A stretch of 38,582 nt of DNA from contig DASWGQ010000373.1 of assembly GCA_036393595.1 (NCBI GenBank), positions 1-38,582 of the forward strand. The letters run 5' to 3'. The stretch is from Myxococcales bacterium (GTDB taxonomy: Bacteria > Myxococcota > Myxococcia > Myxococcales > 40CM-4-68-19). The notes under the pieces are model-generated. The model made no database searches. It had not been told where the DNA came from and was given only the letters and a program-made list of their open reading frames with translations. A program made the position numbers and the translations under genes. Shown here one piece after another: positions 1,087 to 29,368 of the stretch (position 1 is its first letter; every line of letters starts with the position of its first letter).

Positions 1087-1863
1087 CTAGCGCGGAGCGC
1101 TCGTCACCGGCTCTTCGAAGACGTCCAGCCGACCGAACACCCCGATGGCCGTCGCGCTGCGCCCCCGCGCCTCTCCGTTGGTCGCCGCCGCGACCTTGCG
1201 CGAGTCCGGAGACCAGCTCACCTGGAACGACAAGTCGTTGCGCGCGCAGGTGGACGCGGAAAACGCGAGCAGCTGCGCTTCGCCTCCCTTCGCCCTGCGC
1301 AGAACGTACCGAAGCCGCTCGGTACGGCACCCGCGCGCGTCGTTCTTGCCCGCCGTGCGGTCGATCACGAGCGCGGTCATGCCATCCGGCGAGGCGCACT
1401 TCCCGTGCGCGCCGTCGACACGGCACACCGGTGTCAGCGCTCCGGCTTTCGACAGCCGCGCCGCGCCCTCGTCCGCCGGACCGGCCGCGTCGTACCCGGT
1501 CACCGCCGGATCCTCCGCCGAACAGCCTGCTTTGATCCGAGCGGCTTGCAGCGGACCTTCGATGGGGCGCGTCTCGAAGTCCTGGTGTCCCTCGGCGGCG
1601 ATGCGGAAGGCCTCGGTTCCCGTGGGGCCGCGCAAGAACAGGACTTGCGTGCGCCAGCTCAGGCTGGAACCGCAGTCCAGATCGTCCCCAGAGGAACGCG
1701 CTTCATAGGCAAGCACGCCCGGGGGCGACCACCCCCGAAGATCGATGCGCCGGTAGTAGCGTCCGGCACGCCCGGCCGGATCGAGTGGGTCTGGATCGAG
1801 CGCCAGTCCTCGCGACGCCGACTCCGCCAGCGCCAGCGCTGCGGCGATCGCGAGCAGCCGCAA
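1087..1863 (-). CDS. Secreted Cys-rich hypothetical protein; candidate immunity partner of the upstream spike-effector
   Basis: 258-aa ORF with a TTG start 3 nt after the TAA of the spike gene. A GAGGGAG Shine-Dalgarno lies inside the end of that gene. Sec-type signal MRLLAIAAALALA|ES, eight Cys, and one PD40/TolB-like 'SWSPDSRKVAA' motif. No family recognised. Confidence 0.7.
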   Translation of the reverse strand: MRLLAIAAALALAESASRGLALDPDPLDPAGRAGRYYRRIDLRGWSPPGVLAYEARSSGDDLDCGSSLSWRTQVLFLRGPTGTEAFRIAAEGHQDFETRPIEGPLQAARIKAGCSAEDPAVTGYDAAGPADEGAARLSKAGALTPVCRVDGAHGKCASPDGMTALVIDRTAGKNDARGCRTERLRYVLRRAKGGEAQLLAFSASTCARNDLSFQVSWSPDSRKVAAATNGEARGRSATAIGVFGRLDVFEEPVTSAPR

Positions 1864-1866: not shown

Positions 1867-4638
1867 TTACTCTCCCTCGATCTTGTAGAAGCGCCCGATG
1901 CGCGGGTCCTCGTACGCGTTCCAGGCGCGTTGCACGCGGGAGACGCCGCCCGCGTTGGCGGTGAGGATCGTGTACTTGACGACGTTGTCCGCCGCGTCTC
2001 TCTGCAGGTCCACGATGAAGAAGGAGTGCCCCGCGTTGCGATCGTCGGCCTCGAGCGAAGCGTCGTTCTCGTGTTTCCAGCCTTGCACGCAGTCGCCCAC
2101 CCGCAGCTTGTTCACCAGCTTCTGCAGCTTGCGAGATTTGACGCGCCGCTTGCGCTCGTTGGGCGAGATCGTCTCGTTCTTTGCCTTGCGCTCGTCCTCG
2201 ATCTCGTCCTCGGCGGCCTTCTGCTCGTCCGCCGAGAGCTGGATCTTCTGGCCCACGCCGAGATCGATGACCACGCCGGTGCTGCCATCCGGATGGTCGT
2301 TGCGGTCTGGGACGATCTCCCAGGCGGATTCGTACTTGCCGCAGGTCCGGTCGATCGCGAGATCGAGGTCGCCGATTTGCCCGCGCGTCGCCCAGAAGAA
2401 TGCGGCGAGCGTCGACGACGAGCAGTCGGTCTGCCAGTGCGGCTTGTCGCTCGCGCTTCCGGTGGTGACGAACCAGGTGTCACCGAACGCAATGCCCACC
2501 GGGAAGACCTTGGGCGGATTCGCCAGCCGGTCCGCTTGCGATGCGTACTTCACACCCTGGCCGGCCCAGTAGTCGAGCGTGGCAACGCATCTGCCGGCGA
2601 GCGCCTTGCTCGACATCGGATCGTCGCTGAACGTCGCCTCCTTCACGCGCACTCCTTCGTACCTGTACGGTTCGGGGAGGTCGTTCTTCTCCAGCAGCGC
2701 AAGGTCGAGCAAGGCCGCGGTGAGGCGGTCGAACTTGCCGGTCGCGACCAGGTCGGACTTGACCTTCCCCACCGTGGAGAGCCTGGCATCCAGCCCGGAA
2801 TCGGCGAGCTGCGCGTTCTGGAATGCCTTCACGTACTGGGCGAGGGAATCGTTGTAGACGTCCATCGCCGACACGGCGGCGTTTCCGTTCCAGAAGAGGC
2901 CCAGGCGGATGCAGCGGATGGCCGGCCCGCGCGGGGACCCGACCTTGAACGGTTCCGATGCGTCGTTCGCCATCCAGTCGTCCAGGTGGCCGCGGGCCAG
3001 CGCGCAGGAGGCGAGCTTGTAGACGAGTGGCCCCGGGGGCGCGATCTCGAGCGTCGCTTGCGCCTTGACTGCCGCCCCGCCGCCCTTCGGCACTGCGGTG
3101 AAGGTGTACGCGATCTTCCTGTCCGGCGCCGCGGCCGCGTCGCTCTCCGAAACCACCAGGGAGAGATCGCCGCTGGGCACCGCGAGATGCGCCACGTCGA
3201 GAGGAGCCGGCACGCCGGTTGCCGGGTCGAGCGAGAGTGAGTCGCAGTCCCCTTGCACCGTCCAGCTGAGCTTCACCGCCTGGCCGGGCAGGACCCGGTC
3301 TCGCTCGAGCTTGGCGGAGATGGTCACCGCCGTGGGCTGCGGCTGAGCAGTACCCGCCGCGCCAGGCTGCGGACCCGCGGGAGCTTGGGTCTGCGCCGGC
3401 GGCGATGCGGCCGCAGGCGCCTGCGTGGAGCCCGCTGCTGGGGCTTGCGCCTGCGTCGAGCCCGTGGTCCCTGCCGCGGCCGGAGGTTGTCCGGCTGCGG
3501 CCGACGGCTGGGCGGCTGCCGGCTGCGAGGCAGCCTGTGCGCCTCCAGCCTCGGCGGCCGCTGGTTGTCCTTGGGGAGCCGCGGCTCCCGCGGCGCCTGC
3601 TTGTGCCTGCGGAGCTGCCGCCGCGGGCGCGCCGGGAGCCTGGCTGGGAGCGGTTGCCGCCCCGGCAGCTGCCTGCGGCGGGGCAGGTGCGGCCCCGGGC
3701 GGCAGGGCGCCCGCCGGTATCGCGCCGGATGCCAGGGTCGCGGCGGGAGCGGCGACGTCGTGCGTCGGCACAACGGCAGAGCCGGCCGCGGCGCCCGCGG
3801 CAGCTCCAGCGGCGGCGCCCGCGCCGGCGCCGCCCGCCCCCGCGCCCGCGGCAGCTCCCGCCGCCGCGCCCGCCACTGCGCCCTTCGCTCCGCCCGTCAC
3901 TGCTCCGGCGATCGCGCCCGCCACCGCGCCGGCCAGCGCCGCGACGCTCAGCGACGACGGGTTGATCTGCACCTGGCTGCCTTTGAGCGTGAACGTTCCA
4001 CCCGCCTTCATCGCTGCGTCGCCGCCGACCTTCAGGTCGAACTTGTCGCTCACGTCGACCTTGGCGTTCTTGCTCGCGTGGACCTCGAGGTCCTCGCAGC
4101 GCATGGCGATCTTCTTCTTCGCCCGCAGCTCGACGCAGCCTTCCTTCGCCTCGATGAGCAGCTTCTTGGCCTTGACGTCGAAGGTGAGGACGCGCTTCCC
4201 CGTCCCGTCGCAGATGGTGATCTTCTCCTCGCCGTCCTTGTCCGACAGGGCGATCTGGTGCCCGGACCTGGTCTGGATCATCCGCGTGCTGTTGTCGTCG
4301 GCGTAGGCGTCCTTCATCGGCTTGTCTTTGGCGTTCCACAGGCCGCGGATCACGTACGGACGGTTCGGCTGGCCCATCTCGAAGGCGACCAGGACCTCGT
4401 CGCTCACCTCAGGCAGCCAGTAGAACCCGCGCCCCGGACCGCCGGCCGGCTGGACCACGCGCGCCCAGTCCGACTCGGGCATTCCCGAAAGCCGCGGAAA
4501 GCACACCTTGACCCGGCCGAGCTTCTGCGGGTCCTTCACGTTGGTGACGAGGGCGACCTCGACGCCGAAGATGGTGGCCGAGCCCGTCGAGGCGACCTTC
4601 CCCGCCCCTTGCATCTGGCCGAACAGGTTCTCGTCCAC
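1867..4638 (-). CDS. gpV/gp5-type spike (VgrG-like OB-fold plus beta-helix, no gp27 module) fused to an Ala/Pro/Gln linker, a beta-sandwich region, a PG-binding-like segment and a papain-like (NlpC/P60-type) Cys/His domain
   Basis: Real start is probably GTG at 4638, with GGGAGGGGGG 6 nt upstream; an ATG at 4614 is the alternative. The N-terminus FGVEVALVTNVKDPQKLGRVKVCFPRL...DWARVVQPAGGPGRGFYWLPEVSDEVLVAFEMGQPNRPYVIRGLWN is the gp5/gpV OB-fold signature. It is followed by beta-helix-like repeats (KITICDG..LTFDVK..LLIEAK..VELRAKKKIAMRCEDLEVHASKNAKVDVSDKFDLKVGGDAAMKAGGTFTLKG). The C-terminal part has TDCSSSTLAAFFW (Cys codon 2422-2424) and LRVGDCVQGW...AGHSFFIVD (His codon 2026-2028). The upstream 503 aa of track ORF 1867..6147 are antisense to the M28 gene and are not coding. 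Confidence 0.85.
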   Translation of the reverse strand: MDENLFGQMQGAGKVASTGSATIFGVEVALVTNVKDPQKLGRVKVCFPRLSGMPESDWARVVQPAGGPGRGFYWLPEVSDEVLVAFEMGQPNRPYVIRGLWNAKDKPMKDAYADDNSTRMIQTRSGHQIALSDKDGEEKITICDGTGKRVLTFDVKAKKLLIEAKEGCVELRAKKKIAMRCEDLEVHASKNAKVDVSDKFDLKVGGDAAMKAGGTFTLKGSQVQINPSSLSVAALAGAVAGAIAGAVTGGAKGAVAGAAAGAAAGAGAGGAGAGAAAGAAAGAAAGSAVVPTHDVAAPAATLASGAIPAGALPPGAAPAPPQAAAGAATAPSQAPGAPAAAAPQAQAGAAGAAAPQGQPAAAEAGGAQAASQPAAAQPSAAAGQPPAAAGTTGSTQAQAPAAGSTQAPAAASPPAQTQAPAGPQPGAAGTAQPQPTAVTISAKLERDRVLPGQAVKLSWTVQGDCDSLSLDPATGVPAPLDVAHLAVPSGDLSLVVSESDAAAAPDRKIAYTFTAVPKGGGAAVKAQATLEIAPPGPLVYKLASCALARGHLDDWMANDASEPFKVGSPRGPAIRCIRLGLFWNGNAAVSAMDVYNDSLAQYVKAFQNAQLADSGLDARLSTVGKVKSDLVATGKFDRLTAALLDLALLEKNDLPEPYRYEGVRVKEATFSDDPMSSKALAGRCVATLDYWAGQGVKYASQADRLANPPKVFPVGIAFGDTWFVTTGSASDKPHWQTDCSSSTLAAFFWATRGQIGDLDLAIDRTCGKYESAWEIVPDRNDHPDGSTGVVIDLGVGQKIQLSADEQKAAEDEIEDERKAKNETISPNERKRRVKSRKLQKLVNKLRVGDCVQGWKHENDASLEADDRNAGHSFFIVDLQRDAADNVVKYTILTANAGGVSRVQRAWNAYEDPRIGRFYKIEGE
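3334..3957 (-). repeat. Low-complexity Ala/Pro/Gln/Gly-encoding linker inside the spike gene (degenerate short repeats such as AGSTQAQAP / AAGAAAG)
   Basis: About 208 codons made almost only of GCN/CCN/CAG/GGN. The protein reads ...AALAGAVAGAIAGAVTGGAKGAVAGAAAGAAAGAGAGGAGAG...GSTQAQAPAAGSTQAPAAASPPAQTQAPAGPQPGAAGTAQPQPT. Confidence 0.8.
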
Positions 4639-4731
4639 GTCCCCCCTCCCGCGTCCCTGCTCTATGGTGAACCAGCGAAGGCGATCGGTCAACCGGCCCG
4701 AGTGGATTTCGAGCGCGCGGCGGCTCGGGCT

Positions 4732-6141
4732 ATGCGAGAGTGCGCCGCCGAAGGAGGCCACGTGCTCGCGCTCATCGCTCTTCTCGCAGCACCGCCCTAC
4801 TCGCCCGAGGTCGCCGCCCGCCTGGTCGGCGGCGCGCTCACCGACGGCGTCACGTACGCCCGGGTGGCGGAGCTGACGGACGGAATCGGCGCCCGCCTCT
4901 CCGGCTCCCCAGGAGCGGAAGCCGCCGTGAAATGGGCGCTGCAGCGGTTTCGCGACGACGGGCTGGAGGTCCGGGCCGAGCCGGTCAAGGTGCCGCACTG
5001 GGTCCGCGGCGAGGAGCGCGCCGAGGTGCTCCCGGCCCGCGGACGCGCGGGCCACCAGCTCGCGGCGACCGCGCTGGGCGGCAGCCCGGGCACCGCGGCG
5101 GGCGGCCTGACCGCCGAGGTGGTCGAGGTGCGCTCCATCGCGGAGCTGCAGGCGCTGGGCGACAAGGCGCGCGGCAAGATGGTGTTCTTCAACCATTCCA
5201 TGTCCACCGCGGGCGGAAAGACCGGGTACGGCGATGCGTCGCCCCTGCGCAACCGCGGCCCGGCCGAAGCGGCGAAGCTCGGCGCCGCCGGAGCGCTGGT
5301 GCGCTCGCTCGCCACGGCATCCCTGCGCGATCCGCACACCGGCGCGACGACGTTCGAGGCCGGCGCGCCAAAAGTACCCGCGGCGGCGCTCGCGGTGGAA
5401 GACGCCGAGCTCTTGCACCGCCTCCTGCAGCGCGGTCCGGTGCAGGTCCGCCTGGGGCTCGGCTGCCGCACCCTGCCCGACGCCGACTCGGCCAACGTGG
5501 TCGCCGACGTGCGCGGCCGCGAGAAGCCGGAGGAGGTGGTGCTGCTCGGTGCGCACCTCGATTCGTGGGACCTTGCCCAGGGCGCGGTCGACGACGCGGC
5601 GGGGGTCGCGGTGGTCATGGAGGCCGCGCGGCTCATCGCGCAGCTGCCCCAGCGCCCGCGGCGCACCGTCCGCGCGGTGCTCTTCATGAACGAGGAGAAC
5701 GGCCTCGCCGGCGCAAAGGCGTACGCGCAGGCGCACGCCGCCGAGGCGGACCGGCACGTGGCCGCGCTCGAGTCCGATGCGGGCGCGGGCCGTCCGCTGA
5801 CGGTCGGCCTGCGCGCGGGCGAAGGCGCGCAGGCGCTCCTCGCGCCTTGGCTCGCGCCGCTCGAGACGCTCGGAGCGGCGGACTTCGGTGGAGAAGCCGG
5901 AGGCGCGGACATCGGCCCGCTGGCGGCGTTCCGGGTCCCGTTCGTGGGCGTGCAGCAGGACGTGAGCCGCTACTTCGACTACCACCACAGCGCCGGGGAC
6001 ACGCTGGACAAGGTGCGCCCGGGCGACCTCGCCCAGACCGCCGCCGCCGTGGCCTGGGTCGCATACGCGCTGGCCGAGATGCCCCAGGCGCTGCCGCGGC
6101 CCAGCGCGCCCGCCGGCCGTCCGTCGGGAGGACGGCCATGA
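4732..6141 (+). CDS. M28-family metallo-aminopeptidase
   Basis: ATG at 4732; an alternative GTG at 4762 lies just after GAAGGAGG. Motifs include [49 protein letters not shown] and [12 protein letters not shown], the M28 zinc ligands. The stop overlaps the next start (ATGA). Confidence 0.85.
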
Positions 6142-7700
6142 CGGCAATCCTGCGCAGCTACGTCCAGGGACGGTGGATCGAGGGACAGGGCGCTCTCGCC
6201 ACGCTGGTCAATCCGGCCACCGAGGAGCCTCTCGCGCGCACCGGGACGGGCGGGATCGACTTCGCGGCGGCGCTGGAGCACGCGCGCGCGGCCTCGCCCG
6301 CGCTGCGGGAGATGGCCTTCGCCCAGCGAGGCGAAGCGTTGCGGGCCTGGTCCCAGGCGCTGCACGCGCACCGGGACGGGCTGATCAGCCTCGCCATCGC
6401 CAACGGCGGCAACACGCGGGGCGATGCGAAGTTCGACGTCGACGGCGCCATCGCCACCCTCGCCCACTACGCGGACCTGGGCGCGCAGCTGGGGTCCTTG
6501 CGCGCGCTGCGCGACGGCGATGCGGTGCAGCTCGGGCGCACGACGCGCTACGCGGGCGTCCATGTCTGGGTCCCGCGCGACGGGGTGGCGGTGCACATCA
6601 ATGCGTTCAATTTCCCCGCCTGGGGCACCGCGGAGAAGGCCGCGGCGTCGCTGCTCGCCGGGATGCCGATCGTCTCCAAGCCCGCGACCAGCACCGCGCT
6701 GCTCGCGTTCCGGCTCGCCGAGCTGGCCGTCGAGACCGGCGCGCTTCCGCCCGGCGCGTTCACCTTCCTCGCCGGCAGCCCCGGCGATCTGCTCGACCGG
6801 CTCGGGCCGCAGGACGTGGTCGCGTTCACCGGCTCCTCGCAGACGGCCGCAAAGCTGCGCGAGCAGCTCGCGAGGCGCGGGGCGCGCCTGAACGTGGAAG
6901 CCGACAGCCTGAACGCCGCCGTGCTCGGTCCGGACGTCGCGCCCGGCAGCGCCACCTGGGACCTCTTCGTCGCCGACGTGGTGCGCGACGTGACGCAGAA
7001 GGCAGGCCAGAAGTGCACGGCGGTGCGGCGCATCTTCGCCGGCCCGCAGCTCGAGGCCGTTCAGGAGGCGCTGGTCGAGCGCCTCTCCTCGGTCAAGGTC
7101 GGGGACCCCTCGCGTCCCGAGGTGGGCATGGGCCCCCTGTCCACGGCGGACCAGCTCCGCGACGTGCGCGCCGGAATCGCGAAGCTCGCCCGGGAGGCGC
7201 AGACGCTGGTGGGAGGCGACCAGGCCGTCGAGTCGAAGGGGTACTTCGTCGCTCCCACGCTGCTGCTCTCGAAGGACCCCGCTGCCGCCACCGTCGTCCA
7301 CCGTGACGAGGTGTTCGGCCCCGTGGCCACGCTGTGCGCCCTCCCGGGCGGCTCCGCGTCCGCCGCTGCGCGCCTGGCAGCGGGCCTGGTGCAACGAGGC
7401 GGAGGCGGCCTGGTGTGCTCGGTGTACAGCGACGACCGCGACTTCCTGCGCGCGTTCGTGCTCGCGGTCGCGCCCTACCACGGGCGCATCTACCTGGGCA
7501 GCGAGAAGGTCGCCGGCCAGACGATGGGCCCCGGAACCGTGCTCCCGCAGCTCGTCCACGGCGGCCCCGGCCACGCGGGCGGCGGCGAGGAGCTGGGCGG
7601 CCTGCGCGGCCTGCAGCTCTACTCGCAGCGCGTTGCCCTGCAGGGTGACCGTGCGTTGCTCGACGCCGTGGCCCCCGCCCTGGAGAAACGGTCGCCGTAA
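6138..7700 (+). CDS. Aldehyde dehydrogenase of the PaaZ N-domain / BoxD type (3,4-dehydroadipyl-CoA semialdehyde dehydrogenase-like)
   Basis: Motifs [48 protein letters not shown] and [24 protein letters not shown] match the E. coli PaaZ aldehyde dehydrogenase domain. No MaoC hydratase domain follows. Confidence 0.85.
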
Positions 7701-8606
7701 TTACTGCGCGGAGTGCCACTGCGCGAAGAGCGGCGGGGCCTCGGCGACGAAGTCCTCGTGACGGGGGCGCCAGTCCAGCTCGGTGCGCGCCTTCTCGCTC
7801 GATACCTTCTGATCGAGCGCAAGGGCGTCGGCGAGCAGCCCCATGGTGGACCGCGCCTTGTCCAGCGGCAGCGCGGTCACCTTGCCGTCCTTGCCGGCGG
7901 CGCGGCTGGCCGCCTCGGCGACCTCGCGGACGGTGCGGGTCGAGGCGTCGGTGGCGTGGAAGACGGAGCCCGCCGGCGCGCGCTCCACCAGCCGCACGTA
8001 CAGCTCGGCGAGGTCGTCGACGTGGACGAGCGGCCAGTGGTTCGCGCCTTCGCCGACGATCTGCGCGGCGCCCTGCTTCAGCGCGGTGCCGAACAGCGAG
8101 GCGGGGATTCCGCCGCGGGCTCCGCCGTAGACGATCCCCGGCCGGACCACGACGGAGCGGATGCCTTCCTTGGCGAGCTCCAGCGTCAGCTGCTCGTGCG
8201 CCGGGCGCCAGGCGGCGATCTTCACCGGATTCGTCGGGCTCGACTCGTCCGCCACGGCGCCGGCCGTGTCGCCGAGCACCCAGATGCCGCTCGTGTAGAT
8301 GAACGTCGCACCCACCCTGCCGTGCAGCAGCTCGCGCGCGTTCTGGATGGACTTGCGGTCCAGCTCGACCGACTGCGGCCCGGGATCGCTCGCGCAGTGG
8401 ACGATCGCCTGCACGCCGTACGCCGCCGCGGCGTATCCGGCGGGATTGGCGAGGTCGCCCTGCACCAGCTTCACGCCGGCCGCCTGGAGAGCGGACGCCT
8501 TGTCCTTGTTGCGGACGAGGGCCTGCACGTCGTGTCCCGCCTTCTTGAGGCGCAGGGAGACGGCACTGCCGATGTACCCGGTCCCGCCGGTGACGAACAC
8601 CTTCAT
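7701..8606 (-). CDS. NAD(P)-dependent epimerase/dehydratase-family SDR
   Basis: MKVFVTGGTGYIGSAV Rossmann motif. 301 aa. Its stop directly abuts the stop of the convergent aldehyde dehydrogenase gene (taa|tta). Confidence 0.85.
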   Translation of the reverse strand: MKVFVTGGTGYIGSAVSLRLKKAGHDVQALVRNKDKASALQAAGVKLVQGDLANPAGYAAAAYGVQAIVHCASDPGPQSVELDRKSIQNARELLHGRVGATFIYTSGIWVLGDTAGAVADESSPTNPVKIAAWRPAHEQLTLELAKEGIRSVVVRPGIVYGGARGGIPASLFGTALKQGAAQIVGEGANHWPLVHVDDLAELYVRLVERAPAGSVFHATDASTRTVREVAEAASRAAGKDGKVTALPLDKARSTMGLLADALALDQKVSSEKARTELDWRPRHEDFVAEAPPLFAQWHSAQ

Positions 8607-8824
8607 CGAGCCCCTCCGTGGGGTGGCCGCGTTTCTCTACGCTCGCGCGCGCCCGCCAACAAGAGCGAAGTGGATGACGCCCTCAGTGCCCGCTCCTGAG
8701 ACGACCGTCGCAGCGACTGTATACCTGCCTACGCACCGTCACCGCCGGTGCGCAGCGAAACCGCCGCCGGTGTGTGCTTTACACCTACAGAGAACGCGGG
8801 CATGTGCCCGGAATGTTTCAGGTT

Positions 8825-8836
8825 CGTGACGTCACG
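8825..8836. promoter_or_regulatory. Perfect 12-bp palindrome CGTGACGTCACG in the divergent SDR / lipid-kinase intergenic region
   Basis: Read directly: ...ggttCGTGACGTCACGcggcGTGTCACtg. A further GTGTCAC half-site lies 4 nt downstream, and a GGGCA-TG-TGCCC palindrome lies about 30 nt upstream. Function is unknown; it looks like the site of a dimeric regulator. Confidence 0.25.
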
Positions 8837-8905
8837 CGGCGTGTCACTGTCCGGCCTACTGTTTGCTACTGACCTCCCGGGGGTTTGCGCGGGAGCGGCA
8901 ACGAC

Positions 8906-9997
8906 ATGAACGTCGAGCGCCTTCCAGTCCGACATCACGAGCGCGTGGCCGTCCTCCTCAACGCCAACGCCGGCGCGGTCTCCGACGACCTCCGGCGCGA
9001 ACTGGAGAACTTCGTCCCGCCCGAGGACGTCTTCTACTCGCGCACCTTCGAAGACGCGCGCGCCATCGCCCGCACCGTCCTGGAGCGCGGGTACTCGACC
9101 GTCCTCACCGGCGGTGGCGACGGCACCTTCGTCGGCTACGTGAACTGCCTCTTCGAAGAGGCTGCCCGGCCGGAGGTGGTGGTGCAAGGCGGAGCGGCGG
9201 TGCAGCTCGCGCGGCACCGCTACCGCGTGCCCCGCGTGGGCGTGCTCAAGCTCGGCACCGGCAATGCGGTGGCGGAGTTCTGCGGCTCGTCCGCCCGGCG
9301 CGTGGGCGTCGTCGAGGACATCCTGCGCGCTCGCTCCGGCGAGGTGGCGCAGGCGCGCGAGGTGCACCTGCTCGACTGCGAGGGCAAGCTGGCGCCCTTC
9401 GCCGGCCTGGGCATCGACGCCGCCGTGCTGAACGACTACGTGCGCCTGAAGAAGGGCCTCGAGGGCGGGAAGCTCCGGTTCGCCGGCGCGGGCGGGCTCG
9501 GCTACTTCCTCTCGATCGTGGGCCGCACCATCCCGGGCTACCTCCTGCAGCGCGGCGTTCCGCAGGTGGAGGTGGTGAACCTCGGCGCGCCGGCGCGGCA
9601 GCTCGGGCCCGACGGGAAGCCGCTCGGCCGCGACATCGCGCGCGGGGAAGTCATCTACCGTGGCCCGTGCCGCATCGCCGCCGCCGGAAGCGTCCCTTGC
9701 TATGGCTTCGGCTTCCACATGTTCCCCTTCGCCCGCAAGGCCCCGGGCCGGTTCCAGCTGCGCATCTCGACGATGGGACTGCCCAGGATGCTGGCCCAGT
9801 TCCCGCGCATCTGGCGCGGGCACACGCCCCGCGGCGGCCTGCTCGACTTCCATTGCGACAAGGTCCAGATCGCCTTCGACCGCGAGATGCCCCTGCAGGT
9901 CGGCGGCGACGCCGAGGGCTATCGCAAGCAGCTGGTGGTCGGCATGGGCGACGAGCCGCTCGAGCTGCTCGACTTCTCCCGCCCCGCCTCTGCGTAG
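8906..9997 (+). CDS. Diacylglycerol-kinase-catalytic-domain lipid kinase (YegS/BmrU-like)
   Basis: VAVLLNANAGA...TVLTGGGDGTF (GGDGT motif)...LKLGTGNA. ATG at 8906 is preceded by GGGAG. The track ORF starts at TTG 8885. Confidence 0.8.
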   Translation: MNVERLPVRHHERVAVLLNANAGAVSDDLRRELENFVPPEDVFYSRTFEDARAIARTVLERGYSTVLTGGGDGTFVGYVNCLFEEAARPEVVVQGGAAVQLARHRYRVPRVGVLKLGTGNAVAEFCGSSARRVGVVEDILRARSGEVAQAREVHLLDCEGKLAPFAGLGIDAAVLNDYVRLKKGLEGGKLRFAGAGGLGYFLSIVGRTIPGYLLQRGVPQVEVVNLGAPARQLGPDGKPLGRDIARGEVIYRGPCRIAAAGSVPCYGFGFHMFPFARKAPGRFQLRISTMGLPRMLAQFPRIWRGHTPRGGLLDFHCDKVQIAFDREMPLQVGGDAEGYRKQLVVGMGDEPLELLDFSRPASA

Positions 9998-10132: not shown

Positions 10133-11539
10133 CTAGAGGACGTTGGAGGCGAGCTCGGCGAGGGCGCTGCGCTCGCCCTTGGTCAGGGTGATGTGCCCGG
10201 CCAGGCGTTCGCTGCGGAACTTGTTCACCACGTGGATGAGGCCGTTGTTGGTGGAGTCCACGTAGGGATTGTCGATCTGGTAGGGATCGCCGGTCAGCAC
10301 GATCTTCGTGTTGTCGCCCACGCGGGTGATGATGGTCTTCACCTCGTGCGGGGTGAGGTTCTGCGCCTCGTCGACGATGATGTACTGGTTGGGGATGCTG
10401 CGGCCGCGGATGTAGGTGAGCGGCTCGATCGCCACCAGGCCCAGGTCGACCAGCTCCTTGTAGCTGCGGCCCGCCTTCTTGTCGGCGCGCGACAGCCCCA
10501 TGAGGAACTCGACGTTGTCGTAGATGGGCTGCATCCAGGGATTCAGCTTCTCCTCGACGCTGCCGGGCAGGTAGCCGATGTCCTTGCCGAGCGGGAACAC
10601 GGGGCGCGAGACCAGCATCTTCTGGAAGACCTGCTCCTCCATCGTCTTCTGCAGGCCGGCGGCGATGGCGAGCAGCGTCTTTCCCGTGCCGGCCTTGCCG
10701 ACGATGGTGACCAGCTTGATCTCGTCGTTGAGGAGCAGATCGAGCGCGAAGCTCTGCTCCTTGTTGCGCGGCCGCAGGCCCCAGGCGCCCTCTTTGAGCG
10801 ACTTGAGCAGCGGCACGAACTTGCCCTTGGCCGCGTTGTACTTGGCGAGCGCGGTGTGGCTCGCGGCGTCGCGGTCCTTGAGCAGCGCGAACTCGTTGGG
10901 ACAGACCGTGCCGGCGATCGCCTCGGGCACCGGCAGCTCGCCGTGCGCGTAGAACGAGTCGATCTCGCCGCGCGAGGCCTCCACCTCGCGCACGCCCATG
11001 TAGACCTCGGGATTCTCGATCTTGTCGTTTCGATAATCCTCGCTGGGCAATCCGAGCGCGTCGGCGCGGATGCGGAGGTTCACGTCCTTGCTGACGAACA
11101 CGCAGCGCAGATTGGGCTCGCGGTCCTTGATGTCCGTGGCCAGCGCCAGGATGCGGTTGTCGGCCAGGTGGCCGTTCATCAGCTCGCGCGGCAGCTCCTT
11201 CTGGGTGAAGAGCACCCGCAGCGTGCCGCCCCCTTCGAGCGGGACCCCCTCGGTGAGCGAGCCTCCTTCGGCGCGGAAGGCGTCCAGGTCGCGCGAGACC
11301 TGGCGGGCGTTGCGGCCCAGCTCGGACAGGTCGCGCTTGAACTTGTCGATCTCCTCCACCACGTAGATGGGGATGATGACGTTGTTGTCCTTGAACTTGA
11401 ACAGCGCGCTCGGATCGTGGAGAAGGACGTTGGTATCGAGGACGTAGTTCTTTCTCAACGAGGGCTCCCGGGCGGCTCGACCCTTCGGCCGGAGCGTAGA
11501 TCGGGAGGGTCCGGAAGCGAAGCCCGAAATCGTCCTCAA
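10133..11539 (-). CDS. phoH2: PIN-domain / PhoH-like ATPase fusion (PhoH2 / YlaK family)
   Basis: N-terminal PIN (YVLDTNVLLHDP...IIPIYVVEEIDKFK), then a PhoH domain with Walker A (VGKAGTGKTLLA) and IIVDEAQNLTPHEVKTIITRVGDNTKIVLTGDPYQID. The start overlaps the cyclase stop by 4 nt. Confidence 0.9.
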   Translation of the reverse strand: MRTISGFASGPSRSTLRPKGRAAREPSLRKNYVLDTNVLLHDPSALFKFKDNNVIIPIYVVEEIDKFKRDLSELGRNARQVSRDLDAFRAEGGSLTEGVPLEGGGTLRVLFTQKELPRELMNGHLADNRILALATDIKDREPNLRCVFVSKDVNLRIRADALGLPSEDYRNDKIENPEVYMGVREVEASRGEIDSFYAHGELPVPEAIAGTVCPNEFALLKDRDAASHTALAKYNAAKGKFVPLLKSLKEGAWGLRPRNKEQSFALDLLLNDEIKLVTIVGKAGTGKTLLAIAAGLQKTMEEQVFQKMLVSRPVFPLGKDIGYLPGSVEEKLNPWMQPIYDNVEFLMGLSRADKKAGRSYKELVDLGLVAIEPLTYIRGRSIPNQYIIVDEAQNLTPHEVKTIITRVGDNTKIVLTGDPYQIDNPYVDSTNNGLIHVVNKFRSERLAGHITLTKGERSALAELASNVL

Positions 11540-13644
11540 GCCGCTGCCTTTCCGGGGCCGGACTCGACGCGATTCCGCCCCGTCTGCTTGGCCCTATACA
11601 GCGCCCGGTCGGCGGTGGTGAGCAGCTCGTCCGGGTTCTGTCCCCCGCCCGGCCAGGTGGCGACGCCCACGCTGACGGTGACGCGCAACGAGCCCTGCTC
11701 GGTGACGTGGGAAGTCCCTTCGACGGCCGCCCGAAGCCGCTCCGCGATGGCTCGCGCGCCCGCAGCATCGGTCTCCGGCAGGACCACCGCCAGCTCCTCG
11801 CCGCCGTAGCGCGCCACCAGGTCGGTCTCGCGCGCCTGCGCGCGCGCGACCGCCGCCACCCCGCGCAGGACTGCATCGCCGGCCGGGTGGCCGTGCGTGT
11901 CGTTCACCTTCTTGAAATGGTCGACGTCGAGCAGGACCAGCGAGAGCGGCCGGCGGTAGCGCTGGGCCTCGCGGACCCGCGCCGCGAGCTGCGCGCTGAG
12001 CGTGCGGCGGTTCAGCAGGCCGGTGAGGCCGTCGGTGGTGGCGAGCTTCTCGGCCTGCTCGTACAGGCGCGTGCGCACCAGCGCCGCGGCGGCCTGCAGC
12101 GCCAGCATCGCCAGCGAGGCCTGCACCGGGTCGGGCAGGCCGTCGCGGCGGCGAGTCCCGCACACCAAGGTGCCCACGGTGGTCTCGCCCGCCCGCATCG
12201 GGAAGATCTTCAGCGCGCCCAGGCCCCGTACGGCGGTGGCCGAGTCGAAGATGACCACGCGCTCCATCGCCTGCAGCTCGCGGCCGGGCAAGGGAGCTCC
12301 CAGCCGGACCACGTTGGCGACCAGGCCGGGGTTGTCGGCGAAGGTGAGGCCCGCCAGGGGACCTGCGCCCTCTCCCGCGACCGACTGGACGCGGTGCCGC
12401 GGCCGCGCTCCGGCGCGCGCGGGCTCCTCGACCAGCGTCACCGCGCACAGATCGAGCGTGCCCATCTCGCGCGCCTGCGCCACCGCGCAATCCGCCGCCT
12501 GCGCCAGGGTGGTGGTGCGATTCAGCTCCTCGAGGGCGCGGAAGAAGCGCGCCTTCTCCTCCTTCTCGCTGCGCACCGCGGCGAGCAGGCGCTCCCCTTC
12601 CATCGCGCGCACCACCTCGCCGGCGAGCGACGTCAGCACCTGCTCGTCGGCGGGCCCGAAGGCGGCCTCGCGATCGGCGACCAGCGCGCCGAGCACGCGC
12701 TCCTGCAGGTCGCGCAGCGGCACACCGCAGAAGCAGTGCACCGGAGCCGGGCCGTCGTAATGCGAGAGCGCGGGACCGTCGCCCTGCAACAGGACCGGCC
12801 TCGCCGCCGCGAGCACGGCGCCCAGCGCACCCTCGCGCGTGGGCAGCGGGCCGCGGAAGAGGTGGTCGCTGCGGGAGATCGAGTCGCGCAGGCGCACGGT
12901 CGCGCCGTCCGGCGAGAGCAGGAAGACCGCGACCGTGTGCGGCTGCAGCGCGGCGGCGGCCACCGAGAGCGCGCCGCGGACCGACTCCTCGATCTCCGAC
13001 ACGGCCGCGAGGAGCTGCCGGTCCGGGTCGGCCTGGGCGGTGGCGACCAGGCGGAACTCGCGCGCGCTGCGCTCCGCGTCCGCCACGCGGCGCCGCACCG
13101 CCTCCTCCTCCGCGGTCCGCGCGGCCCGCAGGCGCGCGGCGAGCACGCCGTGGTAGAGCGCGGCGAAGACGGCGGTGAAGGCGGCGTGCGTGGCGAAGAG
13201 CGGCCAGCGCACGGGCAGCGCGCCCTGGGCGAGGAAGAGCCCCGCATCCAGGCCCAGCAGCCATCCCAGCGCGGGGAGCGCGAAGCGCAAGGGGAGCGCC
13301 AGCGCGTAGCCGGCCCCCAGGAGATACACGAGAGGATAGAGCGGGCTCGACAGGCCCCCGCCGAGCTGCGCCAGCGCCAGCGCGCCTACCGCCGACAGCG
13401 CGCACGCCTCCACCGTCCACCGGGCGGGCGCGCGTGCGCCGCTCAGCTTCCGCGTCACCTGCCGCAGCGCCGCCCACACCCCGGCGGCGACCAGGAACGT
13501 CCAGGAGGCAATGCGGGCGGGATCTAACTGGGCGGACTGCGCGAAGGCTCCGCGCACCAGCAGGACCGCAAGCGCGAGGATCGCGGCGGGCATGGCTGCC
13601 CTGCTCGCCCAACGCCGCGCCCGCCTGGTCCAGTGCTCCGCCAT
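11536..13644 (-). CDS. Membrane-anchored GAF-GAF-GGDEF diguanylate cyclase
   Basis: About 5 N-terminal TM helices and two GAF-like regions. The C-terminus reads DGLTGLLNRR...LLDVDHFKKVNDTHGHPAGD...RETDLVARYGGEELAVVL, with a GGEEL active site and an RxxD I-site five residues upstream. Confidence 0.9.
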   Translation of the reverse strand: MAEHWTRRARRWASRAAMPAAILALAVLLVRGAFAQSAQLDPARIASWTFLVAAGVWAALRQVTRKLSGARAPARWTVEACALSAVGALALAQLGGGLSSPLYPLVYLLGAGYALALPLRFALPALGWLLGLDAGLFLAQGALPVRWPLFATHAAFTAVFAALYHGVLAARLRAARTAEEEAVRRRVADAERSAREFRLVATAQADPDRQLLAAVSEIEESVRGALSVAAAALQPHTVAVFLLSPDGATVRLRDSISRSDHLFRGPLPTREGALGAVLAAARPVLLQGDGPALSHYDGPAPVHCFCGVPLRDLQERVLGALVADREAAFGPADEQVLTSLAGEVVRAMEGERLLAAVRSEKEEKARFFRALEELNRTTTLAQAADCAVAQAREMGTLDLCAVTLVEEPARAGARPRHRVQSVAGEGAGPLAGLTFADNPGLVANVVRLGAPLPGRELQAMERVVIFDSATAVRGLGALKIFPMRAGETTVGTLVCGTRRRDGLPDPVQASLAMLALQAAAALVRTRLYEQAEKLATTDGLTGLLNRRTLSAQLAARVREAQRYRRPLSLVLLDVDHFKKVNDTHGHPAGDAVLRGVAAVARAQARETDLVARYGGEELAVVLPETDAAGARAIAERLRAAVEGTSHVTEQGSLRVTVSVGVATWPGGGQNPDELLTTADRALYRAKQTGRNRVESGPGKAAA

Positions 13645-13653
13645 GCGCGCGCC

Positions 13654-13953
13654 TCACTCGAACTTGACGAGAACCTCGTCGGGACGGACGAAACCGAGCT
13701 GCTCGCGCGCTTCCTTCTCCAGGACGCGCGGATCCATCGGGGAGGAGAGCGCCCGGACGCGCCGCTGCAGGCGCGCGTTCTCCTCGCGCAGGGCGTGGTT
13801 CGCCGCCTCTTGCCGGGCCATGTCCTGGTCCAGCCTGCGGAGCAGCCGCACCCCGCGCGGGTCGGCCAGCGCCGCCGCGGCGATCGCCAGCGACGCCACC
13901 GCCGCTCCCGCCACCAACGCCCGCGGCCTCCCGATGATCCCCGACAAGTCCAT
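13654..13953 (-). CDS. ftsB: Septum formation initiator FtsB/DivIC family
   Basis: Starts at the internal ATG 13953 (MDLSGIIGRPRALVAGAAVASLAIAAAAL). One TM helix, a coiled coil, and the C-terminal EKEAREQLGFVRPDEVLVKF signature. It ends 9 nt upstream of the cyclase gene. Confidence 0.75.
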   Translation of the reverse strand: MDLSGIIGRPRALVAGAAVASLAIAAAALADPRGVRLLRRLDQDMARQEAANHALREENARLQRRVRALSSPMDPRVLEKEAREQLGFVRPDEVLVKFE

Positions 13954-14202: not shown

Positions 14203-17200
14203 TCAGCGCGATTCGAAAGACTGTTCCAGTTCGTCCATGAGGAGATCGTAGACGCGGCTGGAGACCTTCTCGAGGAATTCCTCGCCGTCGGGCAGGTCGT
14301 CCTTGCCGCCGGCGTCGTCGCCGCGGCTGCGGGTGCGCTTCGCGGTGTGGATGCCGTCGGATGCCGGAGCGCCCTCGCCGTCCGGGAGCTTGAAGTCCGG
14401 CGCGGGGCGGCTCAGGTTGAGCGTCTCCATCGCCGGCGCCGACCCGTAGCTGTGCTCCGCGTGCAGCGCCTCCGCCTCGGCCGTGCGCACGTCGAGGTTC
14501 TTGCGGCCCTTCTGCAGGACGTGCGTCAGCTCGTGCGCGAGCAGCTTCTCGCCTTCCGCGCTGCCGGGGCTGAACTTCCCGGGGGCGAAGAAGATGTGGT
14601 CCTTGACCGTCACCGCCTCGGCCGCGTAGCGGCTGGTGATCTGCGCCGCGCCCGGCCCCACGTGCACGCGCACGCCGGTGAAGTCGCCGCCGAGGAACTG
14701 CTCCATCCGCGCCTGCGTGAGCGCGTCGAGGCGCCGCGGCTCGTCGAGGGGGGAGCCGAGCCGCACCTGCTCCGGGCGCAGCCTGCCGTCGGTCCCGTCG
14801 CCGTCGGTGGTGGCGCGGAACAGGTGCAGCAGATCGCCGAAATGCCCCTTGCGCGCCTTGTGCGCGACCTTCGCCGTGCTGTGGCCGAACGACTCGACCC
14901 CCTCGAGGTCGTGCTTGCCCTCCCCGAGCGCCTCGTCGGCGGTCTTCAGGCCCCCGTGGGCCTCCTCCGCCCGCGCGTCCACCCAGCCCGCCGCGGCTCC
15001 GACCTGGTGCGCGAACCCGGCGGCCGAGCCGAGGTGGATGCGGTACAGGAACCCTTCCGCCTTGCCTGCCAGGTCGTGCGCCTTCTCCGCGGCGTGCTCG
15101 ACCACGTTCAGGCCGTGCATGCCGGTCTCGGCGTAGTGCATCGCCTTCCCGAGCAGGCCGGCGCCGGCGTGCGCCACGTGCGCGACGTCCTCGGCGAAGT
15201 CCTCCACCTTCTCGAATACCTTGGCGAAGAAGCCGCCCTTGCCCCGCCGCCGCCCGGGCCGCTGGTCGTCCTGCGGCGCCTGGTCCCGGTGGTCTTGCCC
15301 GCCGCGCGAGCCGTGCCCGCCGAGCCGCCGCTGACGTGGTCTGCGCCCCGCGGCTCCCTCGGCCGGCAAGAACGCTCCGAACACGTCCGAGAAGAGCTTG
15401 ACGCCCTCGCCCGACCCGATCCAGCTGTCGATGGCCGCGGGGTCCACGTCCTGGCCATCGTGCTCCGGGCGCTCTCCCCGCTGCGCGCCGCGGTCGACGA
15501 AGATGCGTCCGTCGTCGATGCCGCGGAGCACCTCGTCGACGAGGTCTCCCTGCGGCCGCCGTCCGCGCCGTCCGCCGGGCCGGTGCCGCGGGTGACCGTC
15601 CCGCTGGCCCGCCCGCTCCCGATCGAGGGCCGCGTCCTTCGACTCCAGGCCGCGCAGTCCGGAGACGAACTGGCGGAAGTGCGCGCGGATCTCTTGCAGG
15701 TGGTCGCGCAGCTTCGCCGCCCTGCCGGCGAGCGCCGGATCGCTCGCGGCTGCGCGCGCCGCGTCCTTCACGGCCGCCGCCGCCTGGTCGCTGAGCTCCT
15801 CCACGGAGCGGATGCGCTCCGCCGCCTCGGCGCCCCGGTCGCGCTCGAGCAGCTTCTGCACCGCCTTGACCGCGCCGTCCACGGCGCCGCCGAAATGCGC
15901 CACGGCGTGCGCTGCCGCCTGAACGGCCATCTGCGCGTCCGCGGGCGGGTGCGCTCCGTCGACCCCTGCGCGATCGAGGACCCGGACGTGCTCTCGCTCC
16001 GGCTCTTCCGGATGCCCCCGCCCGACGGGCCCCTCGGCGTCGTGCGGGCGCTCGCGGTGCCCCTTCTCCACGTGGCGCTGCGCGCCGAGCTGCAGCGCCT
16101 CCTCCAGCAGCTTGCGCCCTTCGTGCAGCCCTTTCTTCCCCCGCGCGGCGACCTGCAGCGCGCCGTGCAGCTTGTCGTGCCCTTTGTCCGCGGAATCGTG
16201 GACCTGGTCCGCGAAGTGTCCGATCGCCGAATCGTCGCCGAACAGGTCGCCCAGCGTCCCCGCGACCCGGGAGACCTCCTCGAGCCCGTGCTCCACCTTC
16301 CGCCCGGCCGCGATGCCCCGCCGGAACTTTCCCTCGACCATCCCCAGCTTGCGGTCGAGCTTGCGACCCGTCCGCACCGCGCTCTTCTGCAGCTGCTGAA
16401 CCTTCGCCAGCCCCTGCTCGGCGGACTTCCGCAACCCGCCCGTCTTCGGCGCCTTCGCCGCCTTCGGCTCGGCCTTCCCGCCGCGCCGCAGCGCCTTCTC
16501 CAGCTTGGCGATGCTCTGGTCGATGAGGCGATCCTGCGTGCCGTCGGCGAGGAAGTCGCGCGCGCCGCGGTCGCGCTCGTACTTCGCCTGCAGCGACCGG
16601 AGCTCGGACTTCGCCGCCCTGGCCTCGGCCAGCACCTTCTCCACGTGCGACCGGGCGTCGTCGTCGCCCAGCGCCCCCGCGAAGGCGATCACCTTGCCTT
16701 GCACGGCGAAGATGTCGCGCGTGTTGCGGTAGACGTCCGGGTGGGTCTGTTCGGAGATTCCCTGCCCGCTGACGCCGACGTGCTTGCCGAGGTCCTTCCC
16801 GCCGGCGATGGCGGAGTGCACGCTCGCGCGCGCCTTCTGCTGCCAATCCTCGTAGAAGGCGATCTCCTTCTCGTACTTCTCGTTCCCCCGGGCGAGCCGC
16901 TTGGCTTCGCCGATGCGCTTGGCGATCTCGTCGACCTGGAGGCCCAGGCCCATCAGCTCGTGGAGCGCCTGGTCGGTCTGGTCCTTCGCGCCCAGCTCGT
17001 GCGCCTTGCGCAGCCGCCGGGCCGACTCCAGCTCGAACCGCTGCACCTGCCGGGAGACCGAGCCGATGGCATTCCAGGACTGCGTCAGCCGCCTGGATCG
17101 CTCCTCGTCCGACTCGTGGGCGACCTCCGCGCGGGCAGCGGGAACGCCGCCCTGGAGGTGCTCGAGCTCCGGAGCGTCGTGGATCTTCTTGCGCCTCTTC

Positions 17201-26485: not shown

Positions 26486-26591
26486 GCTCTAGGAGTACCC
26501 GACCTTCCAGAGGGGCGCTACCTCTGGGCCGGCCCCGTCAACTCGTCCCGTGGCCGGACGCAGCGCGTTAGACCACGGTGCGGGGCGGGCG

Positions 26592-28766: not shown

Positions 28767-29368
28767 GCTTCCTCGGGTGGCCCTGCGTTCGCGCGGAGCA
28801 CGGCCTGGGCCGGAGGCGGCTCCTTAACGAGCTTCCCGCGCGCGGCGCGCGAGGCGGCGAGCCCCGCGGGGGCGCGGGCCGCGTTCTGCGCCACAAGCTC
28901 CTTGAGCCCGAGCGCGATGGACGCGTCGATCACCTGGGTGCCGGCGATCAGGTCGCCGATGCGCCGCGCGCCCAGATCGCGCGTCAGCGGCTGCAGCGCG
29001 ACGCCCGTCTCGACGGCGAGCAGCACGCCGAGGACCGCCAGCGTGACGGCCACCGGGTGCGGAGCGCCGAAGAGGGCCGGCAGCAGCGCTACCGCGAAGA
29101 CCGCGTTGCGGCGCAGGCAGGCGGCGATGCCGGCCGGACGCCGGGTCGCGAGCTGCACCACCCGCAGCCCGGCGGCGCGCTTGCCGAGCGAGCGTCCGGT
29201 CCCGAACAGGGCGTCCGCGCAGAGGATGAGCGCCAGCGAGAGCAGCTCGCCGGCCCGCGCGTGCTCGCGCATCAACAAGATTGGGGCGAGCGCCACGGCG
29301 AGGTCCAGCGCCCGCGCCACGGCGCGGCGCCGGACGTCGGCGGGCGGGTAACTCGAGGGGTCAGCCAT
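28751..29368 (-). CDS. RDD-family membrane protein
   Basis: 205 aa from ATG 29368, which shares one nucleotide with the hemB stop (TGATG). It has hydrophobic helices and an R..D pattern (RRAVARALDLAV...). Its 3' end overlaps the ATP-grasp start by 16 nt. Confidence 0.65.
   Translation of the reverse strand: MADPSSYPPADVRRRAVARALDLAVALAPILLMREHARAGELLSLALILCADALFGTGRSLGKRAAGLRVVQLATRRPAGIAACLRRNAVFAVALLPALFGAPHPVAVTLAVLGVLLAVETGVALQPLTRDLGARRIGDLIAGTQVIDASIALGLKELVAQNAARAPAGLAASRAARGKLVKEPPPAQAVLRANAGPPEEACASP

Follow-up and report, generated by a model that had tools for sequence, protein, structure and literature searches.

A gp27-less spike with an exchangeable C-terminal domain and a linked candidate immunity gene in Myxococcales

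Can a spike protein that is encoded away from any injection machinery carry a toxin and, if so, on which machine and against what target? This question is raised by one gene on a contig of 38,582 nt from a Myxococcales bacterium (DASWGQ010000373.1, assembly GCA_036393595.1; the whole stretch is called the window hereafter). The gene encodes a 923-aa protein in which a spike module of the gp5/gpV type is followed by a long linker and a C-terminal domain of a new family, and a second gene of 258 aa lies directly behind it. Our answer, to which we give a probability of roughly 0.6, is that the product of the gene serves a Myxococcales contractile injection system (CIS) as an alternative "evolved" central spike, bearing an antibacterial effector that is matched by a periplasmic immunity protein. 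An earlier sequence-only reading had proposed a puncturing spike that delivers a peptidoglycan amidase or endopeptidase. The gp27-less spike fused to an effector stands, now as a swappable cassette with a linked partner, whereas the NlpC/P60, CHAP, and PG_binding_1 assignments failed every profile test. The parts on which the argument draws are listed below, each with its basis.

1867..4638, (-): spike-effector gene, 923 aa, GTG start and TAA stop (translation, G+C at third codon positions (GC3), ratio of nonsynonymous to synonymous substitution rates (dN/dS), and the same open reading frame (ORF) in L018, L058, and L059)
4641..4650, (-): Shine-Dalgarno-like GGGAGGGGGG, immediately 5' of the GTG start (direct reading of the sequence)
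4336..4554, (-): gp5/gpV OB-fold domain, residues 29-101 (Pfam PF04717, Phage_base_V)
3955..4335, (-): spike beta-helix, residues 102-228 (aligns to solved spikes; 57-97% identical to gpV paralogues)
3334..3954, (-): Ala/Gly "zipper" and then Ala/Pro/Gln-rich linker, residues 229-435 (composition; frame kept in L001)
3031..3333, (-): Ig-like beta domain, residues 436-536 (strands in an AlphaFold2 model at a predicted local distance difference test score (pLDDT) of ~58-72; phrog_2155)
2653..3030, (-): helical middle domain, residues 537-662 (a module common to P0124, P0125, P0127 (two copies), and P0132)
1870..2652, (-): C-terminal candidate catalytic domain, residues 663-923, new family (alignment A5, AlphaFold2 model)
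2422..2424, (-): codon of Cys739, candidate nucleophile, at the N-terminus of a predicted helix (translation, A5, model)
2026..2028, (-): codon of His871, candidate general base, at the start of a predicted strand (translation, A5, model)
1954..1956, (-): codon of Asn895, in the invariant ILTAN strand, candidate third triad residue (alignment, translation)
1087..1863, (-): 258-aa candidate immunity gene, TTG start (signal-like N-terminus, conserved cysteines, homologue in L007)

The N-terminus is a spike module. Residues 29-101 match Phage_base_V (PF04717) with an E value of 7e-24 and 84.4 bits against a cutoff of 23.8, so that the OB-fold signature recognized earlier near the N-terminus is now backed by a match above the gathering threshold. 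The beta-helix follows directly, with residues ~100-247 aligning to the beta-helix of the solved spikes 9gtr, 9jg8, 8gra, 7aef, and 7b5h. Taken together, residues 4-247 match only the C-terminal gp5 part (OB fold plus beta-helix, positions ~355-610) of solved VgrG/Cis8 spikes (9gtr 360-610, 9jg8, 8gra, 7aef, 7b5h, Pvc8, and Afp8), and the NCBIfam model VgrG_rel is aligned over its positions 355-538. Because the alignments are confined to the gp5 part of these chains and models, the gp27 module is absent; a hub of this kind (~350 aa) would also find no room, as just 20 residues separate the start from the OB fold and a divergent M28 peptidase gene lies beyond the start codon. The CIS-type spikes 9gtr, 7aef, and 7b5h are matched at E values of 4e-23 to 6e-12, compared with 5e-5 for VgrG1, a type VI secretion system (T6SS) protein of P. 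aeruginosa. Similarly, VgrG_rel, the best NCBIfam match, scores 139 bits against 42-55 bits for T6SS VgrG models (weak matches to TIGR03361 and TIGR01646). None of these models is matched at its own family cutoff. The protein has no signal peptide in its sequence.

The missing hub, which the sequence-only reading had also pointed out, is not unusual. For residues 1-235, relatives at E<=1e-10 number more than 1,000, and the best 120 (61-88% identity) are mostly 225-226 aa long and labelled "phage baseplate assembly protein V [Myxococcales bacterium]". A gp27-less spike is, to judge by these relatives, ordinary for Myxococcales. About 1 in 10 of the best 120 exceed 280 aa. The extended relatives that we read individually (P0003, P0006-P0008, P0012, P0021, P0024, and P0122, and the spikes of L007, L010, L011, L013, and L017) run on beyond the beta-helix, mostly into an Ala-rich segment and then into other domains. 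Across the whole OB fold and beta-helix, the module is conserved at 57-97% identity among orphan copies and at 62-64% with copies embedded in CIS gene clusters.

It is these clusters that point to a machine. P0070 (64% identity) closes a cluster in the order Pvc16_N, sheath, tube, DUF6760, sheath, tube, a 1,200-aa protein, CIS_tube, and gpV. In L005, L006, L014, and L016, too, paralogues with 62-64% identity to the spike module come last, directly behind genes for Pvc16_N, sheath, tube, and CIS_tube. The carrier, which had been called unknown, is thereby narrowed down by its paralogues, while the observation that no CIS structural genes lie in the window itself still holds. In the Myxococcales clusters, the CIS_tube gene stops 10-40 nt before the gpV start, and the cluster spike is thus likewise devoid of a gp27 module; in the more distant relatives L019, L020, L028, and L030, ~1.1 kb separates CIS_tube from gpV, leaving room for one. 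Both kinds of spike can be found side by side, as the metagenome-assembled genome (MAG) La1_maxbin2.464 holds a cluster-embedded 224-aa spike (L014) and an orphan, extended spike of 815 aa (L017), the latter with no CIS gene within 10 kb.

A few further observations concern the clusters and the orphan copies. Between the second tube gene and CIS_tube, a protein of 1,200-1,616 aa is encoded (L005 5737-9339, L014 4481-9331) that has no Pfam or PDB sequence match and may be a tape measure or something else; a gp27 module hidden in the 1,200-aa version was sought by PDB sequence search without a match. In L005 a 2,320-aa ORF precedes the CIS cluster. L015 (9995-12211) carries an orphan 237-aa gpV with no CIS genes nearby and, 0.7 kb downstream of it, a gene for a 274-aa protein that appears by eye to have a PAAR-like N-terminus and a C-terminal extension.

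Behind the beta-helix, the composition of the chain changes abruptly. The linker, estimated earlier at ~208 aa, measures 207 aa and contains 91 Ala, 34 Gly, 27 Pro, and 18 Gln. The extensions of extended gpV paralogues open with a hydrophobic, Ala/Gly-rich "zipper" (SLSVAALAGAVAGAIAGAVTGGAKGAVAGAAAGAAAGAGAGG...), which lies at 3790-3954 (-), residues 229-283, in the window and occupies the same position in L007, L010, L011, L013, and L017 (the L010 copy gives a weak Gly-zipper_Omp match, E 0.026). Its role might be that of a trimeric stalk or of a segment active on membranes. The beta-sandwich-like segment that had been suspected after the linker corresponds to predicted strands at residues 436-536, and this region weakly matches phrog_2155, a virion structural protein (E 2e-5).

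The next segment fared less well. The stretch that had been likened to a PG_binding_1 repeat falls in the helical middle domain (residues 537-662), where no Pfam match appears at E<=10 and none to PG_binding_1 (PF01471), and a profile built from seven copies of the domain retrieved no peptidoglycan-binding structure from the PDB; the resemblance is one of motif. In P0127 (578 aa), two tandem copies of the middle domain are followed by a weak PG_binding_1 match (21.4 bits, cutoff 23) and then by a C-terminus with HxxxD and HLH motifs. By eye this C-terminus looked like an M23 peptidase, which Pfam and PDB sequence searches did not confirm.

What, then, marks the extension as cargo? The first line of evidence comes from the chromosomal slot in which the gene resides. 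The slot is flanked by epimerase, aldehyde dehydrogenase, and M28 peptidase genes on one side and by PhzF on the other, and these flanks are 79-97% identical in L004, L010, L011, L012, L013, and L018. It always holds a gpV spike (71-97% identical) with an Ala-rich linker, and the remainder varies:

Window and L018: Ig-like, helical, and Cys/His domains at the spike C-terminus; downstream, the 258-aa gene
L010: 445-aa spike with a small beta domain at its end; downstream, a lower-G+C 923-aa ORF and then a 396-aa ORF with a signal peptide (cargo set at 5697-9655)
L011 and L013: another fused domain of ~180 aa; downstream, a 271-aa signal-peptide protein (cargo set at L011 11307-12122 and L013 4385-5200)
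L004: 375-aa spike; downstream, convergent PGAP1 lipase and Tli4_C genes (cargo set at 11132-13689)

The C-terminus, in other words, differs between the window/L018, L010, L011/L013, and L004 within one slot, as it should in an evolved spike. The last pair is the domain pair of the T6SS effector Tle4 and its partner Tli4, whereas several of the other cargo products fall into no known family. Base composition also changes along the locus, with 65-66% G+C in the gpV, helical, and C-terminal parts, 71% in the 258-aa gene, and 74-76% in the flanks. Read from gene content, the slot pattern is the signature of polymorphic effector-immunity cassettes. By eye, the fused domain of L011/L013 was taken for a LAS/M15 peptidase, but no tool confirmed this. 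The MAG SMAG_U9411 has two versions of the locus, namely L013 (M28 flank, spike with the other effector, no PhzF) and L018 (window-type effector, 258-aa gene, PhzF), which reflects either a strain mixture in the bin or two spike loci per genome.

The second line of evidence is the partner gene. Its TTG start lies 3 nt past the spike stop, with GAGGGAGAG just upstream of the TTG; its product has no Pfam match, and the sequenced part of the gene is under purifying selection (dN/dS 0.30). A homologue co-occurs with the effector in L001-L003, L018, and L061. The most telling case is the distant locus L007, where the effector homologue P0124 (~31% identity by tblastn) is a free-standing gene of 420 aa. 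P0124 starts 10 bp behind the gene of a 716-aa gpV spike (57% identity to the window protein in the spike module) and overlaps by 4 bp a 241-aa gene homologous to the 258-aa gene (32% identity, E 1e-24). Effector and partner have hence been inherited together down to 31% and 32% identity, respectively. Since the domain is fused to the spike in one genome and encoded next to it in another, each time with the same partner, this comparison is strong evidence that the C-terminal domain acts as spike-delivered cargo and the 258-aa protein as its immunity protein. Both partner proteins open with a short segment that is first basic and then hydrophobic, and the cysteines of the two can be aligned; the 258-aa protein is probably secreted, disulfide-bonded, and periplasmic.

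We now turn to the cargo itself. Among 5.8 billion proteins, a word-indexed search turned up no more than one near-identical copy of the C-terminal domain and one homologue at 81%. An exhaustive HMMER search of 1.84 billion representatives added five further relatives (some of them fragments) and two proteins that share the middle domain only, and a subsequent profile search brought nothing new, giving ~8 members in all. The codons of the Cys (2422-2424) and His (2026-2028) singled out by the sequence-only reading are placed exactly, as direct translation confirms, and both residues are invariant in 5/5 complete members at 40-75% identity. In the alignment of these five (A5), the invariant features are Cys739 in C-S-[SP]-S-T..AA.FWA, the motif VNKL..GD.VQ.W, His871 in GH[SC]FF, and I-L-T-A-N895. 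The spacing amounts to 132 residues from Cys to His and 24 from His to Asn, and, at the motif level and in five members, the Cys...His...polar order of the NlpC/P60/CHAP triad is present. An AlphaFold2 model from a 7-sequence alignment (predicted template modeling score 0.60, pLDDT 64.8; residues 796-916 mostly >90) places Cys739 at a helix N-terminus, His871 at a strand start, and ILTAN in the next strand, which is a papain-like arrangement; a single-sequence AlphaFold model of residues 436-923 was unusable (pLDDT 41). Compared with distant members, the window protein has ~21-24 extra K/E/R-rich residues, located in a hairpin of two confidently predicted helices.

Fold comparison gave matches of high probability and poor E value. 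The top matches overall reach a probability of 0.98 with E values of at least 0.045. In the PDB the best are papain-fold proteases of the IdeS/Mac-1 type (E 0.3-0.4, not significant), and in a viral library they are endolysin/CHAP models (probability 0.92-0.98, E 0.18-0.57, not significant). Since these sub-threshold matches lean to papain-fold and CHAP enzymes, a thiol hydrolase is plausible, and we consider a Cys-His-Asn enzyme of this class the best guess, slightly better than an even bet. That peptidoglycan is its substrate is suggested by context, a more tentative proposal that we would put somewhat below even odds. PDB sequence and profile searches (A1, A4), NCBIfam, and PHROGs gave no meaningful match for the C-terminal domains, and tblastn of these against 50,697 phage genomes found none. 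The C-terminus of the L017 spike also looks Cys/His-like and, by eye, NlpC/P60-like; no tool confirmed the latter, and hhalign detected no relation between the two domains.

If these pieces are put together, the following scenario can be drawn. Three chains would trimerise through the OB-fold collar and the beta-helix and replace the cluster-encoded 225-aa spike at the tube tip, the spike tip probably being capped by a PAAR protein. The Ala/Gly segment and a ~150-residue Pro/Gln-rich tether would let three cargo units of 490 residues lie outside the baseplate. Sheath contraction would then push the spike through the outer membrane of a neighbouring Gram-negative cell, and the tethered domains would work in its periplasm, where the Cys739-His871-Asn895 thiol hydrolase would cut an envelope substrate, most plausibly peptidoglycan. 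In the producer, the secreted 258-aa protein would bind the effector in the cell's own periplasm, thus shielding producer and kin.

Several observations speak against this scenario and should be set beside it. As to the machine, none of the 26 window ORFs scanned with Pfam across the 38.6 kb matches a sheath, tube, or baseplate family, as the sequence-only reading had already remarked, and within 10 kb on either side of the Myxococcales cluster spikes there was neither a gene for a gp27-type hub nor one for the baseplate wedge, which leaves the carrier incompletely defined. As to the cargo, the helix of Cys739 is modeled at a pLDDT of only ~56-59, and the invariance of three residues in five complete sequences is weak evidence. 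Pfam returns nothing at E<=10 for the C-terminal domain of the window and nothing at E<=1 for four homologues, Foldseek finds no match at E<=0.001, and hhalign of A5 against an NlpC/P60 profile yields a probability of 1.2% over nine columns around GDLV (the profile comprises E. coli MepS, NlpC, and MepH and two myxobacterial members, and both profiles are shallow). With these results and the PDB sequence searches negative, the earlier assignment to NlpC/P60/CHAP is reduced to a likeness of motif. As to precedent, a toxin-fused spike of the extracellular CIS (eCIS) type is new but unprecedented when measured against the literature: no eCIS VgrG homologue carries a C-terminal extension according to Chen et al. 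2019 (PMC6899500), and toxin fusions never occur on the VgrG module of PVC-type neighbourhoods according to Zhang et al. 2012 (PMC3482391). Spike fusions are not mentioned in the later eCIS toxin surveys that we checked either.

Which other explanations survive? The one that does best leaves delivery as it is and changes the cargo. The C-terminal domain would not be a cell-wall hydrolase but a thiol protease, a deamidase, or an acyltransferase with envelope proteins or lipids as its targets, or else a non-enzymatic toxin with structural Cys and His. The profile searches that came back empty (Pfam, NCBIfam, PHROG, PDB), the 1.2% against NlpC/P60, and the middle domain not being recognized as PG_binding_1 all leave room for it. 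Set against the spacings familiar from thiol enzymes, the 132-residue Cys-His and 24-residue His-Asn distances suit papain/IdeS/YopT-type proteases at least as well as NlpC/P60; the best PDB fold match is an IgG protease, IdeS, and in L004 a lipase effector occupies the same slot. On the other hand, the fold matches of highest probability in the viral library are endolysin and CHAP models, P0127 joins the middle domain to its sub-cutoff PG_binding_1 match, and a secreted, cysteine-rich partner fits periplasmic effectors such as amidases, though it would fit lipases too. We regard this alternative as unlikely, albeit the one to be taken most seriously.

A considerably less probable explanation, to which we give about one chance in ten, takes the protein off the contractile machine altogether. 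The gp5 beta-helix would then be just a trimerising "needle" for a toxin that is otherwise exported or released, or the gene would have been left behind when a CIS locus was lost. The absence of CIS structural genes within 38 kb, the orphan copies L007, L015, and L017, which likewise lack nearby CIS genes, and the missing gp27 hub are in its favor. A remnant would hardly keep its gp5 module at the identities given above for orphan and cluster copies, however, nor an ORF that is intact in several assemblies with a dN/dS of ~0.27-0.32 from linker to C-terminus relative to L001. One MAG holds both cluster and orphan copies, T6SS normally have vgrG-effector islands that lie as orphans at a distance from the main cluster, and the protein lacks a signal peptide. 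A prophage origin of the gpV family was also considered and dropped, as only one distant match turned up among 2.9 million viral contigs.

The spike gene does not itself sit within a CIS operon. The sole eCIS-linked match among the window ORFs scanned lies 9.6 kb away from it and counts in favor of a link to CIS. It belongs to an ORF of ~2,256-2,280 aa (14206-21045 (-)) that the earlier reading had missed, largely helical and of low complexity, whose only Pfam match is the eCIS marker DUF4157/eCIS_core (HExxH, "HELTHVLQ") at the very C-terminal end of the chain (residues 2106-2181); published eCIS toxins usually carry DUF4157 at the N-terminus. The protein may belong to the same unseen machine, as cargo or as one of its components.

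Could the spike instead serve a canonical T6SS of the same bacterium rather than an Afp/PVC-type CIS? The T6SS-type cargo that adjoins the orthologous spike in L004 (PGAP1/Tle4-like lipase and Tli4_C), the weak matches to TIGR03361 and TIGR01646, and an overall architecture resembling that of evolved VgrGs would agree with this. Yet a T6SS VgrG needs its gp27 module for docking on Hcp, VgrG_rel far outscores the T6SS models (no match reaching its family cutoff), and the nearest cluster paralogues sit in Phage_sheath_1, T4_gp19, and Pvc16_N clusters and not among TssB/C/Hcp genes. This makes a T6SS spike improbable, even more so than a protein detached from any contractile machine.

The preferred reading, an evolved spike of a Myxococcales CIS, further presumes that spike and cargo are truly one gene. 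The GTG start codon lies at 4638 and the TAA stop at 1867-1869. The stop-to-stop frame extends to 6147, but this extra part is the antisense shadow of the M28 peptidase gene (4738-6141 (+)), the divergent 5' neighbour on the opposite strand, which has a Pfam match and a normal pattern of G+C over the three codon positions (GC1/GC2/GC3). As the window has 72% G+C, an open frame alone says little, for which reason we relied on codon-position G+C, homology, and other assemblies. GC3 is coding-like on either side of the linker and lower (0.68-0.80) within it. Residues 437-923 show a dN/dS of 0.27 against the 81%-identical homologue L001, which keeps the linker frame as well, despite a 17-codon deletion and a 1-codon insertion (dN/dS 0.32). 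From the gpV part to the C-terminal domains, the gene is continuous in three further public assemblies, L018 (MAG SMAG_U9411), L058, and L059. The frame of L059 is uninterrupted except for an in-frame deletion of 84 nt (window 2720-2803) inside the helical middle domain, and L058 is thrown out of frame within the OB-fold region by an indel close to codon 45. Each may reflect strain variation or faulty assembly. The gpV-to-effector fusion is real and under purifying selection. One metagenome contig departs from this picture: in L002 (1-420), an HTH_26 (Cro/XRE-like) gene, which ends in TGA in the same frame as the linker, abuts mid-linker and joins the window sequence at ~3694. Either the contig is a chimera, assembled wrongly in low-complexity DNA, or the junction is genuine and marks a rearrangement or an insertion allele.

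That the long ORF is an artefact, be it a mis-assembly or a chance GC-rich frame uniting two separate genes, can be dismissed as very improbable, for although GC3 falls in the linker, gene callers on short contigs start the product at Val437, L002 connects the linker to an unrelated HTH gene, and L058 has its indel, the frame is unbroken in L018 (and in L059 bar one deletion), the L001 linker stays in frame through both of its length changes, and the junction of beta-helix and Ala-rich linker recurs in many paralogues.

Elsewhere in the window, 25181-33041 (-) contains ordinary cell-wall and envelope genes, with nothing tying them to the spike: a peptidase S58 (DmpA-like), an RDD protein, ALAD, a cytidylyltransferase, a NamZ exo-muramidase, and a 734-aa protein with two ATP-grasp modules of the D-Ala-D-Ala-ligase type.

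How does this candidate compare with known systems? The closest in design are the evolved VgrGs of T6SS, of which Vibrio cholerae VgrG-3 with its immunity protein TsiV3 is an example. Both have a beta-helix with a C-terminal effector domain acting on the envelope (predicted here) and, directly downstream, an immunity gene (a candidate here), and in both the gene pair may sit in an auxiliary locus apart from the structural genes. They differ in that the window spike has no gp27 module, and so fails VgrG membership, that its gp5 part groups with Afp/PVC-type CIS spikes, that its tether is a 207-aa low-complexity linker, and that the effector and immunity families are new. The general concept of the evolved VgrG is treated elsewhere (PMC6899500).

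Split Gp27/Gp5 spike ORFs have been described for eCIS lineage II, subtypes IIa-c (Chen et al. 2019, PMC6899500). The gp5-only spike is a common feature, as is the position of close paralogues, last after sheath, tube, and CIS_tube. Unlike these spikes, the window gene has a 695-aa extension and sits outside any CIS operon, and no adjoining gp27 ORF was seen in the Myxococcales clusters that we read. Among phages, P2 gpV is a gp27-less spike of OB fold and beta-helix (~210 aa), and T4 gp5 combines a spike with a peptidoglycan hydrolase. The window protein thus resembles the first in lacking gp27 and the second in joining a spike to an enzyme. The T4 lysozyme, however, is inserted between OB fold and helix and serves phage entry, whereas the enzyme-like domain of the window is tethered C-terminally, is swappable, and is paired with an immunity-like gene, with no phage genes nearby.

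With the amidase effector-immunity pairs of T6SS (Tae/Tai) and NlpC/P60/CHAP enzymes, the domain shares the order Cys...GD-hydrophobic...GH-hydrophobic...polar, a secreted partner (predicted here), and the sub-threshold CHAP/endolysin fold matches; it deviates from them in its much larger Cys-His distance, the inserted helical hairpin, the lack of a Pfam match, and the 1.2% hhalign probability. Polymorphic toxin systems (PMC3482391) show the same combination of a constant N-terminal trafficking module, variable C-terminal toxins, adjacent immunity genes, and exchange at a fixed locus. The difference is that the trafficking module here is a spike said never to be toxin-fused.

Toxins of eCIS are thought to be loaded inside the tube or via N-terminal tags, DUF4157 among them, and the spikes have been described as having a structural role alone (PMC6899500, PMC3482391). 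For antibacterial toxins of eCIS, immunity genes are reported to be uncommon or not clear-cut (PMC8213781, PMC10598620). To this picture the locus adds candidate effectors that are fused to or adjacent to a spike, come with immunity partners, and are swapped at one chromosomal slot. The spike domain and its partner form a compact, candidate toxin-antitoxin-like pair, and the beta-helix with its long flexible linker is a natural design for tethering cargo to engineered injection particles. We venture the generalization, at somewhat less than even odds, that Myxococcales CIS of the Afp/PVC lineage use interchangeable gp5-only spikes from orphan islands, with fused or adjacent antibacterial effectors and periplasmic immunity proteins, and that the window domain and its partner found new families of thiol-hydrolase effectors and immunity proteins. 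If true, this would amount to a T6SS-style modular arsenal on an eCIS-type machine, with the spike as a second route of toxin loading, and would point to bacterial antagonism, predation, or kin discrimination in soil myxobacteria.

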